DNA of 64,000 nt from a virus, in the IMG/VR virus record IMGVR_UViG_3300022745_000628, positions 64,001 to 128,000 of that record; one strand, 5' to 3'. Every line of letters begins with the position of its first letter. Within the stretch, counting starts at the first letter, position 1. Both the position numbers and the translations under genes were made by a program. Of the stretch, positions 21,495 to 58,316 are shown in pieces. The notes under the pieces were generated by a model. It worked only from the letters and a program-made list of their open reading frames with translations. It was not told the origin of the DNA and ran no database searches.

Positions 21495-21508
21495 GAGCAC
21501 GGAGGCTC
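21495..21508 (+). promoter_or_regulatory. RBS hairpin GAGC-ACGGAG-GCTC (CsrA/RsmE-consensus-like)
   Basis: Perfect 4-bp stem with ANGGAN hexaloop closed by C-G, 7 nt before ATG 21516. Confidence 0.55.
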
Positions 21509-21515
21509 AACGATA

Positions 21516-22079
21516 ATGACAGCACCATCGCAAATGTTCGAACACTTCCTTGACCCTTTGAAGGGTTGGTGGGATTGGGCGTGTTTGAATTTCGTGGCTA
21601 AGCAATCCGCAGACGTCGAATTCGACATTCCTGCTGGTCGCGTTGTTCACTTGAATTCTAGTGGCGAATTTGTTACCGGACAGTCGGGCGTTACGATGCC
21701 TATGTTCTTGTTCACCGGTAGCGCAGCTTTTGACGTGAATGTTCCAAGCGGAACGACCGCGGCAGGCACCTTTGTTAGCCAACCTATTCTTCCTTCGGGT
21801 GAGATGATGGCTTTGGTTGCAACTGGTGGCTACGAGTTGTCCAGCACCGAATATGACACGACAAAGACTTACGCAGTAAACGATCTTTTGACAGCTCACC
21901 CAGCGGACGATGATTCGGCAGTCGGCGGAGTCCTCACCAACGTCAAAGTTGGTGGCGGCGGAAGCACTACCTATATCGATCCAATCTGCGGCGTTGTTTC
22001 AAAGATCGGACAGCGAAACGAGTACAACGTGCGTGTATTGCACTTTTGGACCGTTTACTTGCCGGCATCGAACGATTAA
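21516..22079 (+). CDS. Putative capsid decoration/cement protein
   Basis: 187 aa, beta-rich (IPAGRVVHLN..G, YAVNDLLT..GVLT), directly upstream of the capsid gene. Confidence 0.6.
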   Translation: MTAPSQMFEHFLDPLKGWWDWACLNFVAKQSADVEFDIPAGRVVHLNSSGEFVTGQSGVTMPMFLFTGSAAFDVNVPSGTTAAGTFVSQPILPSGEMMALVATGGYELSSTEYDTTKTYAVNDLLTAHPADDDSAVGGVLTNVKVGGGGSTTYIDPICGVVSKIGQRNEYNVRVLHFWTVYLPASND

Positions 22080-22089
22080 TCCACAAAAC

Positions 22090-22127
22090 CAACCGCCGGC
22101 TAATAACCGGCGGTTGTTCTTGTTTTC
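22090..22127 (+). terminator. Strong hairpin with T-rich tail between decoration and capsid genes (terminator/attenuator or stabiliser)
   Basis: CAACCGCCGG-7 nt-CCGGCGGTTG then TTCTTGTTTTC. Confidence 0.5.
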
Positions 22128-22151
22128 AATTTCATCAAAAAACTGGCCCCG

Positions 22152-22186
22152 TCGGAAGGACTCCGATGGTCGCTTCACGGAGGAAG
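22152..22186 (+). promoter_or_regulatory. Tandem GGA-loop hairpins in capsid gene 5' UTR
   Basis: TCGGA-AGGAC-TCCGA (22152-22166) and CTTC-ACGGAG-GAAG (22173-22186). Confidence 0.55.
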
Positions 22187-22196
22187 AACTTAAAAC

Positions 22197-23123
22197 ATGG
22201 CTACACAAGAACAAATCGGTGTAATGAACCGCACGTTTCTTGATACGATCGAATCCGGTCAGTACAAGAAGGCCGCGGATGCCGTTACCGATTACACTCG
22301 AACGAAGTTGCGTGAAGAAGGATTCTTCCGCAAGATTATGCCACCGATCCAAGTAGACGACAGTCAACTTGATCGACAAGTTAGTGATCCACGACCTGTG
22401 ATCATCATCGACCGTCAGGCCGAAAGTGGTCCAGCCGTAACCATTCCTTTCGCGACGACCCCACGTAATATGTGGATCAAGGGACCGCGATACATGGTTG
22501 CTTTCAGCCGTATCATCACCCCACAGTTCCAAACAGATAAGGATTATCTGCGAACGTGGCATATGGACATCCGTCAATTGGTCTCCGACCAAGCGATCCG
22601 CGATATCGGTACTGAAGAAGATACCAAGTTTATTTCGGCTGTTAACTCGGTCATGGTCGGCGCAGATCAAGCGGTTCCAGCTAACAACAACGTTGTTCAG
22701 TGGAAGACGATTCCAGGCGGAATCACCCGCGACGCGATCAAGTCTGCTAAGGCAATCATGCGAAAGGGGCCTTCGAAGCTCTCCGCTGAAGTTGCTTTGG
22801 TTAACCACGTTACTATTCTCGAGTTCGAAGCGTTTGATCGTAACGAAATCGGTGGTGACTTGGCACAAGACATTTTCAAGAATGGCTTCGCCGAGAAAGA
22901 AATTTTCAACCTCAAGTTGTTCGCAACGATCAAGGACACGCTTGTTCCTGACGATTCGATGTACTTGTTTGCGGATCCAAAGTTCATTGGAAAACACTTC
23001 GTTCTCGAAGATGTTACCATGTACATGGAGAACAAGGCATTCATGCTTTCGTTCTTCGCATACCAAACTACTGGTGCTGCAATCGGGCACACCGGCGGCT
23101 TGGCTCGCGCTGACTTCGCATAA
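22197..23123 (+). CDS. Major capsid protein, compact HK97/encapsulin-like fold
   Basis: 308 aa; strong RBS and highly biased codons; position after protease/scaffold/decoration; RTKLREEGFFRKIMPP and SDQAIRDIGTEEDTKF pattern typical of HK97-type backbone. Confidence 0.8.
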   Translation: MATQEQIGVMNRTFLDTIESGQYKKAADAVTDYTRTKLREEGFFRKIMPPIQVDDSQLDRQVSDPRPVIIIDRQAESGPAVTIPFATTPRNMWIKGPRYMVAFSRIITPQFQTDKDYLRTWHMDIRQLVSDQAIRDIGTEEDTKFISAVNSVMVGADQAVPANNNVVQWKTIPGGITRDAIKSAKAIMRKGPSKLSAEVALVNHVTILEFEAFDRNEIGGDLAQDIFKNGFAEKEIFNLKLFATIKDTLVPDDSMYLFADPKFIGKHFVLEDVTMYMENKAFMLSFFAYQTTGAAIGHTGGLARADFA

Positions 23124-43062: not shown

Positions 43063-43100
43063 ATTTTGTTCTAATTTAAGTAGACCACCAAAACCTCATT

Positions 43101-43116
43101 TCGCCACGGAGGGCGA
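43101..43116 (+). promoter_or_regulatory. RBS hairpin TCGCC-ACGGAG-GGCGA
   Basis: Same ACGGAG hexaloop as the decoration and capsid genes, 8 nt before ATG 43125. Confidence 0.55.
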
Positions 43117-43124
43117 GGCTTCAA

Positions 43125-45962
43125 ATGGCTTATATCAAACCGCAAGTTCGGGTTTTTCAGGAATTCACGACCTCGCCTAGTATTGGCGACAATATTCGGC
43201 GGGCGCACATTTCAGGCCCGAATGCATTGCTGCACCGATTCTCCAAAGCTGCTGAGAAGCCGCTAATTGGATTGGGCAGCTATGTCAACGACACTGATAC
43301 CGCTTATTTCTGGCCTGCTAAGCAAGGCGGATCGCTTGTAGATCTCGACAGTGTTAAGCTTTTCGTCGAAAACGGATTGCTTAAATACTTCGAAGATTTG
43401 ATCGGCGAAACGTCTGGTGACCTGGGTACGATTACTCCAGTCTCTGGGCGCGCTAACTACATCACGCACGATACGGTTAACTGGCGTACAGCCAACAGCT
43501 ATTCCCGTAGCTCCTTGCTATTGGACCGAGACGTCAAGATCGGCGACGTGGCATATATTCGTGGTATCGAAGATCCAGAAGGGGATTGCATCGAGCACAC
43601 GCTTTGGACCACGGTGGCGGGGTTTTCAGCTAATACGGTCGCAGCTGTAGTAGGCAGTGCTTACTCTGATGCCGCTAACGCCGAAGATTCAAGCTATGAC
43701 ATTGATTCGACTTTTACAGCTGGTCAAGCGAACTGCGTACTTGTTGCTAATATCGACGGGGAATCTTACGATGGATTGCCAAGCGGTAACATCAGTGAAA
43801 CATACACGATTGAAGTAATCAAGTCTGCCGTCGCTGGATGTCAAGCTGCTCGGTTCCGCGTCACCTCTGCAAGCGGTAACGACGATGTATCGGAAGTAAC
43901 ACCAGCGGATTTCGGCGACGCTACTACCATCGGCACACGCGGACTGACCGTGACTTTCGACCTTAGCGAAGGCGGCGGTTGCGGCGATGACGCTATAGCC
44001 GCTGGTCTGCCAGCAGATCAGTTCATTGTCGGACAGACATGGGAAGTTTCTATTACGCAGCAAGGCTATGCAGCCTGCGCAACTGCAAACAACACTTATA
44101 CCGGATCTTTCGACGACACCTACATTATCACCGTTGTTAAAGGTGGTAAGTGGGCAGACGGGCCTAAGATCTCGGTTCGAACCGCTCGTGGACTAGATAG
44201 CTCTGGTCCTACCAGTGTGACCGGCAATGCTGTATCTGTACCAGTTGGCTCGTACGGCCTCACAGCATCGTTTGCTAAGTGCTCGGGCGGTGGCGGATCT
44301 TTGAGCGGTCTACGTTATGGCGATATTTTCTACATCGACGTGGTATCTAGCTCGTCCGGACCAGTTCGAACACTGATCTTGCGAGACAACTTGCCATCCG
44401 GTTTGCTTGCCGCTGACGACCTCGATTTGAAGTTGTACATTCAAAAAACCTTTGAAATCAACCCACATCGTACCGAAAGCGCTCCGCTAACCAACTACGA
44501 CACGTCCGCTAGCACGATCACCGTCAACAGCGGTATTACTGCTTATGATTCGACTTGGACGTTGAACGGCGAAGAACAAGTGCTCACGCTGGAATCTGGT
44601 TGCACATTGGCAAACAGCCGGCTATGCGGACAATTGTTTGCAGAGTATCGAGAATTCGTTGACGACCTAACCAACGACATTCGAATTGCTGTTACGGCAG
44701 CCGATTTGGATGACATTCCTGGTCCGCTCGAGCCAAGCAATCCATTGAAGTGGGGCGTATACAAGGCGTTGATCAATACCAGCTCGTCTGGCGTTGCTTA
44801 CACGGCTGTCGCTGACCCTTCGGATCCTGATTCTTGGCAAACTGTTTTGGACGCCGCTGAAGGCCGTCCGGACATTTACAACTTTGTACCGCTTACCTTC
44901 GATACCACGGTTCAAAACCTTTTCGTAGCACAGGCTGTTAACGAATCGGCACCGGAAGTTGGAAACTGGAAGGGCGTCATCCTTTCCGGACAGTACAAGG
45001 AAACCGCAAAGGTTGTAGGTGGCGACGATGTTTTGGCGACGATTGCCGAAAACATTGGAACAACCGAAACCGACTACACCCTTATGACTATCTCCAACGC
45101 TACGTTGCTAACTGACGACGTACGATCTGGGGACAGTGTTCGGTTCTTGTACGACACAGACGGTTACGGTGGAGAAATCTACACGACATATGTTGTACAA
45201 AGCGTTTTGTCAGAAACCAGCCTTATTCTCGTAGCCGGTCCAGACGTAGCCGTCTCCGTGCCACAAAAGGTAGAAATCTGGCACACACTTACCAAGAGCG
45301 AGATCGCTACCGACCTAGTCGAGCAAGCACAATCTTTCGCAAATCGTCGGGTGGTTTTCACTGCTCCGGACATTGTCTACGAAGCTGGCCTGCCAACCCC
45401 AGGCTACTTTGTATGCTGCGCCGTCGGCGGATTGATCTCGTCTGTCCAACCTCATCAAGGTTTGACGCACGTACAGCTATCCGGTTTGGGCGGAATTGTG
45501 CAACGCACGCGTGACTACTTCAAGGCTAGCTTGCTAGACCAACTGTCAGCTGGTGGCGTATGGACTGTCACAGCCGATCGCGCTGGTACAATTTTCACCC
45601 GCCACGCTGTAACAACCGACACTACGGATCTAAAAAATCGCGAAGAAATGATTCGCCGAAACGCGGATTCGATTTCCTACGATTTTGTCGAGTTGCTAAA
45701 GCCGTATATCGGTCGAACCAACGCGACGCCGACTGTGCTTACCAAGCTTGATTACGAAATCAACAAGAAGCTGGACAGCTACACTTCGGTTATCGTCAGC
45801 CAAGACTTGGGCCCACAACTTATTTCCGGAGCTATCGCTGTCGACAGCACCGGCGCCAAGTTGCTCCGAATCCATCCGCTCGCAGCAGATAGAATCGAAA
45901 TTGTCCTTAACGTGTCGCTACCGGCACCGGGCAACAATATCGATCTTCACATTGTTGCTTAA
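43125..45962 (+). CDS. Contractile tail sheath protein
   Basis: 945 aa; MAYIKPQVRVFQEF start; C-terminal CAVGGLIS..PHQGLTHV, LDQLSAGGVW, EEMIRRNADSISY, IEIVLNVSLPAPGNNIDLHI; followed by tube-size gene. Confidence 0.85.
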   Translation: MAYIKPQVRVFQEFTTSPSIGDNIRRAHISGPNALLHRFSKAAEKPLIGLGSYVNDTDTAYFWPAKQGGSLVDLDSVKLFVENGLLKYFEDLIGETSGDLGTITPVSGRANYITHDTVNWRTANSYSRSSLLLDRDVKIGDVAYIRGIEDPEGDCIEHTLWTTVAGFSANTVAAVVGSAYSDAANAEDSSYDIDSTFTAGQANCVLVANIDGESYDGLPSGNISETYTIEVIKSAVAGCQAARFRVTSASGNDDVSEVTPADFGDATTIGTRGLTVTFDLSEGGGCGDDAIAAGLPADQFIVGQTWEVSITQQGYAACATANNTYTGSFDDTYIITVVKGGKWADGPKISVRTARGLDSSGPTSVTGNAVSVPVGSYGLTASFAKCSGGGGSLSGLRYGDIFYIDVVSSSSGPVRTLILRDNLPSGLLAADDLDLKLYIQKTFEINPHRTESAPLTNYDTSASTITVNSGITAYDSTWTLNGEEQVLTLESGCTLANSRLCGQLFAEYREFVDDLTNDIRIAVTAADLDDIPGPLEPSNPLKWGVYKALINTSSSGVAYTAVADPSDPDSWQTVLDAAEGRPDIYNFVPLTFDTTVQNLFVAQAVNESAPEVGNWKGVILSGQYKETAKVVGGDDVLATIAENIGTTETDYTLMTISNATLLTDDVRSGDSVRFLYDTDGYGGEIYTTYVVQSVLSETSLILVAGPDVAVSVPQKVEIWHTLTKSEIATDLVEQAQSFANRRVVFTAPDIVYEAGLPTPGYFVCCAVGGLISSVQPHQGLTHVQLSGLGGIVQRTRDYFKASLLDQLSAGGVWTVTADRAGTIFTRHAVTTDTTDLKNREEMIRRNADSISYDFVELLKPYIGRTNATPTVLTKLDYEINKKLDSYTSVIVSQDLGPQLISGAIAVDSTGAKLLRIHPLAADRIEIVLNVSLPAPGNNIDLHIVA

Positions 45963-45970
45963 TTTCAATC

Positions 45971-45980
45971 ACAAGGACGT
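45971..45980 (+). promoter_or_regulatory. ACAAGGACGT over the tube-gene RBS (A-CANGGANG-U consensus)
   Basis: Exact match to the CsrA/RsmE consensus, 7 nt before ATG 45988. Confidence 0.5.
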
Positions 45981-45987
45981 TTGACAC

Positions 45988-46548
45988 ATGGCCGATACTT
46001 CAGTTTTTAATGCTAACCAGGTATATCGCGGTGCGTTTAACATCGCGAATAGCGTGGTAACGTTCGCCGGACAAGCGGCAGATCACCTTGTCCAAAACAT
46101 TCAATACAACTTTACGCAGCAAATCTCCATGATTTACGAATTGGGCTCGCCCAATGTGTATTTCAATGGCGGACGCGCTAGCGGTAATGCTGCATTGAAT
46201 CGTATCTTGGTGGCGCTAACCAAAGACAAACTTTTTGAGAGCTTCAACGATGTGTGTAGTCCAAACGATATTCATATTACACAGGCGTCCGGGTGTACCA
46301 CAAAGCCGTCGGGTACCGGCGGCACGGTTAGTCCTACAAACACGGTCAATCCTTTTATAAATACCCGCAGCGAGTTGGTTTTGAAATCTGCTGTGTTGTC
46401 AAACATCGGCGGATCGCAAGACAACCAATCAGCTGTGTTTACTGAGCAGATGAGTTTCTTGTTTTTGAACATGACGCGTTCAGTAGGAGCGGGCACTGGT
46501 CAGACCACTACACCTGCCGCTACTACTCCAACTACGGTTGTCGCTTAA
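45988..46548 (+). CDS. Tail tube protein
   Basis: 186 aa after sheath; VQNIQYNFTQQISMIYELGS..YF.GGRASG pattern. Confidence 0.75.
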   Translation: MADTSVFNANQVYRGAFNIANSVVTFAGQAADHLVQNIQYNFTQQISMIYELGSPNVYFNGGRASGNAALNRILVALTKDKLFESFNDVCSPNDIHITQASGCTTKPSGTGGTVSPTNTVNPFINTRSELVLKSAVLSNIGGSQDNQSAVFTEQMSFLFLNMTRSVGAGTGQTTTPAATTPTTVVA

Positions 46549-57855: not shown

Positions 57856-58316
57856 TGGCCAATTCTGGCGGAACAGCGGGAACTCCAAAAAGTGCTATCG
57901 ATACCAACTTCAATCGGTATCTAGAGAAGCTGCGCATCAACGCAGCGGTATTGCAAAATGCATTTCAAGGTAAAACACAGCGGAAATGGCTGGCGGTCGA
58001 CAACGCTGGATTAGATCCGAGCGTTTTACCTGACCGGCTTCTAGAACGCAAAAACTTAAACGCTGCTTACGACGAAATAACCGGATCCGGCACTCCGGGT
58101 ACTCTAGGCGACATAATAGCTACCAAATTGCAGCTGGACTATTTAGCTATGGCAGAACGCGCTGCGCGAGCTCGCGCCGTCAGTTTGCCGAGAGCGGCGG
58201 CGTTAGCACACGGACGCAGATACGGTCAAGCACACGGCGCTATTTTCACAGACGCTCCCGGAGGAATACCGCACGCGATTAGCAATTACATTCGATCGGG
58301 AGGGCTATCCCGATAA
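57855..58316 (+). CDS. Hypothetical baseplate-region protein
   Basis: 153 aa, TAATG-coupled on both sides. Confidence 0.55.
   Translation: MANSGGTAGTPKSAIDTNFNRYLEKLRINAAVLQNAFQGKTQRKWLAVDNAGLDPSVLPDRLLERKNLNAAYDEITGSGTPGTLGDIIATKLQLDYLAMAERAARARAVSLPRAAALAHGRRYGQAHGAIFTDAPGGIPHAISNYIRSGGLSR

Follow-up and report, generated by a model that had tools for sequence, protein, structure and literature searches.

Genes and ribosome-binding sites in the window

The stretch of DNA that was analysed, here called the window, comprises 64,000 nucleotides (bases 64001-128000) of an IMG/VR virus record of 193,796 bp. This record stems from an uncultured phage, is 93% complete and has a G+C content of 47%. 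All large genes of the window are carried by the + strand. Among them are a gene for a decoration-like protein, the major capsid gene that follows it, the tail sheath gene and a putative tail tube gene, which are listed in Table 1 together with the features of their leaders. No family match was found for the decoration-like protein. Its AlphaFold model had a pLDDT of 87.5, and the top Foldseek matches were auxiliary or decoration capsid chains (Sf11, BB1, HFTV1 and TW1), all of them weak (E 0.02, prob about 1). On the basis of this model, 'decoration-like' appears to be a reasonable label. The tail tube gene also had no family match.

Table 1. Positions of the virion genes and of the features in their leaders, numbered from the first base of the window
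Feature	Position	Strand	Basis and remarks
Decoration SD hairpin, GAGC-ACGGAG-GCTC	21495..21508	+	Read from sequence; in minimum-free-energy (MFE) fold; orthologous leaders covary
Decoration/cement-like gene, 187 aa	21516..22079	+	ATG at 21516; directly upstream of capsid gene
Terminator-like hairpin with T-run, decoration-capsid intergenic region	22090..22116	+	Consensus scan
Upstream capsid-leader hairpin, 8-bp stem, loop AGGAC	22149..22169	+	Read from sequence; MFE fold
Capsid SD hairpin, CTTC-ACGGAG-GAAG	22173..22186	+	Read from sequence; MFE fold; orthologous leaders covary
Major capsid protein gene, 308 aa	22197..23123	+	ATG at 22197; matches phrog_2522 major head protein
Sheath SD hairpin, TCGCC-ACGGAG-GGCGA	43101..43116	+	Read from sequence; MFE fold
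Tail sheath gene, 945 aa	43125..45962	+	ATG at 43125; matches phrog_279 and phrog_2839
Tube-gene SD, linear match to the 10-nt RsmE consensus, ACAAGGACGT	45971..45980	+	Read from sequence; no stable stem
Putative tail tube gene, 186 aa	45988..46548	+	ATG at 45988; assigned by position after sheath gene

The Shine-Dalgarno (SD) sequences of the decoration-like, capsid and sheath genes are each contained in a hairpin. An earlier sequence-only reading of this DNA had reported the hexaloop C-ACGGAG-G in three different stems at these genes. This was borne out both by reading the sequence and by the minimum-free-energy folds of the leaders, in which all three hairpins are present. The stems are short (4-5 bp), easily melted and all different; that of the sheath hairpin can be extended to 43099-43118 by two more G-U pairs. 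At each of the three sites, the loop plus the closing G reads GGAGG and lies 11-14 nt before the ATG, and the GGA core is exposed in the apical loop, as expected of a CsrA operator. The extended consensus CANGGANG, an ANGGAN hexaloop closed by C-G, is matched exactly by all three hairpins, each of which reads CACGGAGG, so that the match to the CsrA/RsmE consensus noted by the sequence-only reading stands. According to the passage of PMC4894983 in which they are cited, apical hexaloops containing CANGGANG are high-affinity targets of CsrA/RsmE.

The sequence-only reading had extended this pattern to a fourth gene, the tube gene, and to weaker AAGGAC versions before 19824 and 21093. The tube-gene SD indeed carries the consensus, as CAAGGACG, but in linear form, and neither this site nor the two AAGGAC sites fold into a hairpin. 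These three sites are therefore regarded as plain SD sequences. A further claim concerned a second GGA-loop hairpin in the capsid leader. In this phage the hairpin is real, and its GGA lies 21 nt before that of the SD hairpin; no second GGA loop was found within about 50 nt in the decoration and sheath leaders. As a GGA-loop hairpin, however, it is not clearly conserved beyond chance: upstream GGA-loop hairpins were seen 15 and 18 times in relatives versus about 10.6 and 10.7 expected, and GGA occupied 22 of 846 loop trinucleotide slots. These counts do not support a second upstream loop as a clade-wide feature.

Two other structured regions of the window deserve mention. Between 20820 and 20897, inside a gene for a scaffold-like protein of 417 aa, three perfect hairpins GAGGC-AGGGAT-GCCTC match CANGGANG, and the region folds with a z-score of -3.4. 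We rejected these hairpins as operators, since their sequence codes for a peptide repeat, (E)AGMPP, and relatives retain this repeat without the hairpins; codon choice has probably produced the hairpins as a by-product. At 58293-58312, the SD (GGGAGG) of a gene starting at 58316 forms part of the 5' arm of a stem of 7 bp, ATCGGGA/TCCCGAT. The upstream gene terminates at 58316 as well, and this SD looks like a masked site that is opened by translational coupling.

Occurrence of the motif within this genome

CACGGAGG occurs three times on both strands of the 193.8-kb genome, where base composition leads us to estimate about 5 copies, and all three copies are located at the decoration, capsid and sheath ribosome sites. 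CANGGANG has 24 and 12 copies on the two strands, of which only four precede real gene starts, namely those of the decoration, capsid, sheath and tube genes. In a flank-permutation census of this genome, ribosome sites with an ANGGAN hexaloop numbered 4 versus 4.3 expected for stems of at least 3 bp, and 4 versus 1.9 expected for stems of at least 4 bp (p-value of 0.11). Hairpin ribosome sites are thus not enriched over the permutation expectation in this phage, and this limits the support for the sequence-only reading. The fourth match in the census belongs to a 190-aa gene in an array of small paralogues and is compatible with chance. On the other hand, we estimate that perfect Watson-Crick stems of at least 4 bp at all three genes where the hairpin recurs would arise jointly with a probability of about 2e-5 (about 0.027 per site). 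It should be noted that the motif counted within this one genome alone is not significant and that the evidence is comparative. The significance comes from orthologous, covarying hairpins in related phages.

Conservation and covariation in related phages

A nucleotide search of the INPHARED phages gave no match, and IMG/VR scans with the single capsid or sheath protein gave none either, whereas an alignment query did retrieve relatives, namely 80 IMG/VR loci with capsids 46-56% identical. At least 135 capsid-bearing IMG/VR contigs belong to the clade, and the capsid has more than 220 metagenome homologues. The MAG bins holding these homologues span many phyla, including Planctomycetota (three cases, two bins and one protein label), Nanopelagicales, Nannocystaceae, Akkermansia, Methylococcales and others. 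We rejected a host assignment on this basis, as such a scatter probably represents binning noise.

The decoration-like gene is located just upstream of the capsid gene in all 80 related loci (tblastn). In most of these loci, the capsid and decoration ribosome sites are both hexaloop hairpins of the form A-(C/U/A)-GGAG with very different stems, including TTC/GAA, AAAC/GTTT, GCAC/GTGC, GATC/GATC, GGAAC/GTTCC, CACAC/GTGTG, AGAC/GTCT and TCTTGAC/GTTAAGA. Covariation was scored for a 5-bp helix in gapless alignments of 58 distinct capsid and 57 distinct decoration leaders, in which leaders without a hairpin were included. In the true helix, 72% of the cells were paired as compared to 53-54% after shuffling, and 59 cells showed a double change where 23-26 were expected, a number that was reached in none of 500 shuffles. 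Every slid register that served as a control scored below the true helix. The view of the sequence-only reading that differing stems around a constant loop reflect selection on structure is upheld by these data.

Hairpins of the type A-Y-GGAG with different stems were also seen in about 16 of the 27 sheath leaders read (for example GGC/GCC, ATTGGC/GCCAGT, GTGC/GCAC and AATGC/GCATT), and in only about 7 of 26 tube leaders. The genes with hairpin ribosome sites are mostly virion genes, which are expected to be highly expressed. The closest relatives, with capsids 83-84% identical, keep both the capsid and the decoration hairpin, and in one of them the decoration stem is compensated to AGCGC/GCGCT. 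In relatives with capsids 71-74% identical the hairpins have been lost, also at the sheath gene, and in some CsrA-bearing relatives (G010 and G012) both the capsid gene and the decoration gene are preceded by a plain AGGAGG. Some relatives hold the SD in pentaloops or heptaloops instead of a hexaloop. Since the hairpins are kept with covariation in some lineages and lost in others, the element is old and under selection, but losable.

Several additional observations were made in the surroundings of these leaders. The word TAAC(T/C)(A/T)A, as in ccctaactaa, is conserved 5-20 nt upstream of many hairpins in the capsid and decoration leaders of relatives (loci L040-L080), and in the window, words resembling AATTTCA are found before the capsid, tube and sheath leaders. 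Both kinds of words may be late promoter or transcript-start signals, in which case the hairpins would lie at the extreme 5' end of their mRNAs. In a relative with a capsid 74% identical (L232:221-1868), a resolvase gene and an IS605 OrfB/TnpB-type gene are inserted directly upstream of the head-gene module. A faint Pfam match to intein splicing is recorded for the large gene that lies upstream of the scaffold-like gene in a close relative (L235:1-539).

A CsrA-family protein encoded by the phage

CsrA is a well-studied bacterial regulator of translation. A six-frame Pfam search revealed that the phage itself encodes a CsrA homologue of 81 aa, outside the window at positions 143741-143986 of the genome and about 80 kb downstream of the capsid gene. 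The GTG start of this gene overlaps the end of the upstream gene, and no informative family was found among its neighbours. The protein scored 47.6 bits against PF02599 (cut-off of 27) and 39.5 bits in the six-frame search of the genome, and it also matches phrog_9500. Its N-terminus, MLVLNRK, keeps L2, L4, R6 and K7, while the counterparts of R44 and E46 of E. coli CsrA (1y00) are R60 and E62, so that the RNA-binding residues of the family are intact. In the monomer model, the usual strands are present together with the C-terminal helix. Strands 2 and 3 are separated by an insertion of 17 aa, modelled with a pLDDT of about 56, at the position where RsmN/RsmF carry an internal helix. This CsrA is the most divergent one that we have seen, with 39.5 bits in the genome search versus about 45-90 bits in almost every relative, and a search for relatives of the protein returned only the protein itself.

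CsrA was detected in 33 of 50 related records and, among the 26 records with a completeness of 90% or more, in 23. The sequence-only reading had considered a phage-encoded player as one possibility, and such a player is indeed present in this phage and in most of its near-complete relatives. Some relatives have two or three copies of CsrA or fused double domains. In L093 (G008) and L100 (G024), single proteins of 184 and 159 aa contain tandem CsrA domains, the second of which has an insertion after strand 2, like the CsrA of the present phage; these proteins may be single-chain versions of the CsrA dimer. Many other relatives' CsrA proteins (csrA loci L090, L099, L101, L102, L106 and L109) have a basic C-terminal tail that contains a conserved G-L-E-R-(P/Q/S) motif, which is absent from the CsrA of this phage and might serve as a handle for a partner protein. 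In addition, 4 of 27 csrA genes of relatives have a hairpin with an AAGGAG hexaloop on their own ribosome site, an arrangement that is consistent with autoregulation.

Hairpin sites and the presence of csrA

We compared the numbers of hairpin ribosome sites in eight whole genomes with and without CsrA (Table 2). This comparison is not decisive, as only three complete CsrA-less genomes were available.

Table 2. CsrA and hairpin ribosome sites in eight whole genomes, for stems of at least 3 bp and of at least 4 bp
Genome	CsrA	Sites, at least 3 bp	Expected	Sites, at least 4 bp	Expected
G041	Present	33	8.4	20	3.3
G045	Present	22	5.8	14	2.2
G007	Present	18	5.5	9	2.1
G005	Present	10	6.9	9	2.7
G049 (complete, terminal repeats)	Not detectable, even with a profile of the phage CsrA	13	5.4	7	1.9
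G040 (complete)	Not detectable	4	5.9	3	2.6
G003 (89% complete)	Not found	13	6.1	6	2.2
G000 (this phage)	Present, most divergent	4	4.3	4	1.9

The hairpin sites of G049 include those of the capsid, scaffold-like and tube genes. Since this genome keeps enriched hairpins in the absence of a detectable CsrA, the hairpins do not strictly need a CsrA of the phage. A host CsrA could serve instead.

Other components of CsrA circuits were looked for as well. FliW was detected neither in this phage nor in any of 34 relatives. Among the Rfam families, only one tRNA and no sponge RNA of the CsrB/RsmZ type was found in the whole genome, and no intergenic region exceeds 3.4 GGA per 100 nt. The small RNA with GGA repeats that had been suggested as something to search for is therefore not apparent in the phage genome. 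Two candidate sponges were dismissed. The most GGA-dense spacer (genome 191355-191529) contains TTGGA repeats that are not in loops, and a structured RNA candidate near 46 kb of the genome is GGA-poor. The former is a spacer of 175 nt outside the window with several spaced TTGGA(G/T/C) words and a stemless ACGGAG SD before the next gene; the words could be an operator or a promoter repeat.

Possible functions of the hairpins

The explanation to which we give an even chance of being correct is that the three hairpins are CsrA/RsmA-type operators and that a CsrA-family protein, probably that of the phage itself, would act on them to control the translation of the main virion proteins. Each hairpin would present an A-C-GGA-G hexaloop, closed by C-G, atop the SD of an abundant virion mRNA, that of the decoration-like, the capsid or the sheath gene. 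A CsrA-family dimer would bind these loops and compete with the 30S subunit, and in this way the timing or the amount of virion protein synthesis would be set. The most likely binder would be the phage-encoded 81-aa homologue, and host CsrA may bind as well. In the capsid leader, the second GGA loop 21 nt upstream would reproduce the two-loop layout of the Campylobacter flaA leader, in which the loops are bridged by one CsrA dimer. The motif with its fold, its covariation across the clade and its strict loop geometry, as well as a csrA gene with intact RNA-binding residues, are shown by the data, whereas the binding of CsrA to the three sites and the direction and the purpose of the control are what we infer. 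Several points count against this explanation, namely the chance-level number of hairpin ribosome sites in this genome, its divergent CsrA, the enriched hairpins of G049, the plain SDs of G010 and G012, the loss of the hairpins at 71-74% capsid identity, and the searches for FliW and a sponge RNA that found neither. Moreover, there is no obvious reason why a phage would repress the proteins it needs most.

The sequence-only reading had already named an alternative, namely that the loop simply displays the SD. Under this alternative the hairpin would work without CsrA: a short stem would expose a strong SD, GGAGG, in an apical loop, such that the virion genes are translated efficiently whatever the structure of the surrounding mRNA, and the hairpin may also protect the leader from decay. 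The SD usage of the phage is in keeping with this idea. Among 223 called genes of the whole genome, 64 have no SD-like motif before any scored candidate start, including large virion genes and RNA polymerase genes, and this may point to a low use of SDs by the host. SDs of the GGAGG type are rare, being found at 10 genes when longer forms are included. The three hairpin genes are among these 10 and have the strongest SDs of the genome, where many other genes have none. Other findings that would fit are the 4-5 bp stems that are easily melted, the enriched hairpin sites in the complete CsrA-less relative, the pentaloops and heptaloops that hold the SD in some relatives, and the predominance of virion genes with an expected high expression among the genes concerned.

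However, if the function were SD display, loops of many sizes and with many registers should be tolerated. We therefore examined stems of at least 4 bp around the GGAs of ribosome sites in the eight whole genomes pooled, with loop lengths of 3-9 and every register. The hexaloop with GGA at positions 3-5, that is NNGGAN, was seen 85 times versus 36.6 expected (2.3-fold). The only other excess among all loop sizes and registers concerned 8-nt loops with the GGA one base further in, which we take to be these same hairpins with their closing pair scored as open. When no loop base was forced, loop position 1 was an A in 78% of the hairpin sites versus 32% of the non-hairpin sites. The closing pair was mostly C-G, with a 5' C in 54% and a 3' G in 59% of the hairpin sites, and ACGGAG and ATGGAG together were about six-fold enriched. 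GGAGG is usually preceded by a pyrimidine (C/U), which shortens the SD pairing that an A would extend, and two bases upstream an isolated A is retained. Such a strict loop geometry, which is the one reported for CsrA/Rsm targets (PMC4894983; bioRxiv 10.1101/2020.08.24.265819), would not be expected of a generic SD-display function, for which the near-universal presence of csrA in the clade would also be a coincidence. SD display is weakened by these findings and is, in our judgement, a less likely but still credible rival to a CsrA operator.

It is also conceivable that another factor recognises the hairpins, such as an RNA-binding protein of the phage, a GGAG-targeting endoribonuclease like RegB of T4, or some host factor that is not CsrA. 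In favour of this, the loop shows strong conservation although no CsrA was detected in G049, most genes of these phages are without known function, and the preference for Y at loop position 2 lies outside the published CsrA consensus. Nonetheless, we consider this unlikely, because the geometry fits CsrA targets point for point and no candidate protein was identified. Moreover, RegB acts on early mRNAs and is not known to act on late ones.

Lastly, the genome-wide count at expectation, the loss of the hairpins from sister lineages at 71-74% capsid identity and the divergent local CsrA might suggest that the stems are, in this genome, chance flanks around ordinary SDs or inherited remnants without a present function, but this is very unlikely in view of the perfect stems at all three orthologues with the low joint probability estimated above, the single 8-mer that they share, and the retention of the hairpins, one with a compensated stem, in relatives at 83-84%.

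Comparison with known CsrA systems

If the three hairpins are CsrA operators as proposed, the closest parallel among known systems would be the flaA leader of Campylobacter jejuni, which is controlled by CsrA and FliW. This leader belongs to the mRNA for the self-assembling structural protein that is most abundant, and it has two ANGGA stem-loops, the second of which covers the ribosome-binding site, a GGA-to-GGA distance of 21 nt, and compensatory changes (Dugar et al. 2016, PMC4894983). Similarly, the target here is the mRNA of such a protein, and the capsid leader is short and has two loops, with the second on the ribosome-binding site and the same 21-nt spacing; the structure is likewise supported by compensatory changes. 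Unlike in the flaA system, the regulator gene belongs to a phage, virion genes are targeted, and CsrA control is a prediction. Moreover, only the capsid leader has two loops, of which the first is a pentaloop, and the FliW partner is missing from this phage and the 34 relatives searched.

The sites also resemble RsmE-hcnA and the high-affinity sites of CsrA/RsmA, where an ANGGAN hexaloop closed by C-G overlaps the SD, in that all three match CANGGANG exactly. They differ in that the flanks fit the (A/U)...(U/A) of the consensus only at the capsid site, and in that they are phage-borne and no sponge RNA was found. The SELEX consensus of RsmA/N is CANGGAYG in a hexaloop, according to the part of bioRxiv 10.1101/2020.08.24.265819 that cites it. 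Where that consensus has a Y, loop position 6 of the phage hairpins is a G that forms part of GGAGG.

Phage-encoded members of the CsrA family have been recorded before, both as the csrA alleles of PMC7366521 and as the 'CsrA-like regulator' of PHROG 9500. Sobrero and Valverde (2020, PMC7366521) surveyed 2517 phages, 30 of which had csrA, and gave neither a target nor a function for it. In contrast to these alleles, candidate targets can be identified for the present system, and they are in the phage's own virion genes. In the literature that we searched, no paper connected the CsrA of a phage with the virion mRNAs of that phage, and phage csrA was encountered only as a census (PMC7366521).

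A more far-reaching possibility is that this clade of jumbo phages runs a CsrA circuit of its own, which would couple the synthesis of virion proteins to assembly or to the time of infection. The capsid, decoration and sheath mRNAs would then be kept silent by the phage CsrA until they are released, either by the mass of late leaders, which would serve as their own sponge in the way the flaA mRNA does, or by a FliW-like virion protein, and in the present phage the circuit would be reduced to three operators and a remodelled CsrA. We regard this scenario as rather unlikely in its entirety. If true, it would represent a viral counterpart of the homeostat formed by flagellin, CsrA and FliW.

Irrespective of such a circuit, if the hairpins are CsrA operators, this would explain why phages carry csrA. 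It would mean that large phages use a borrowed bacterial regulator to control the translation of their own late proteins, and a hairpin of 20 nt and a protein of 81 aa would constitute a compact and testable RNA-protein pair.
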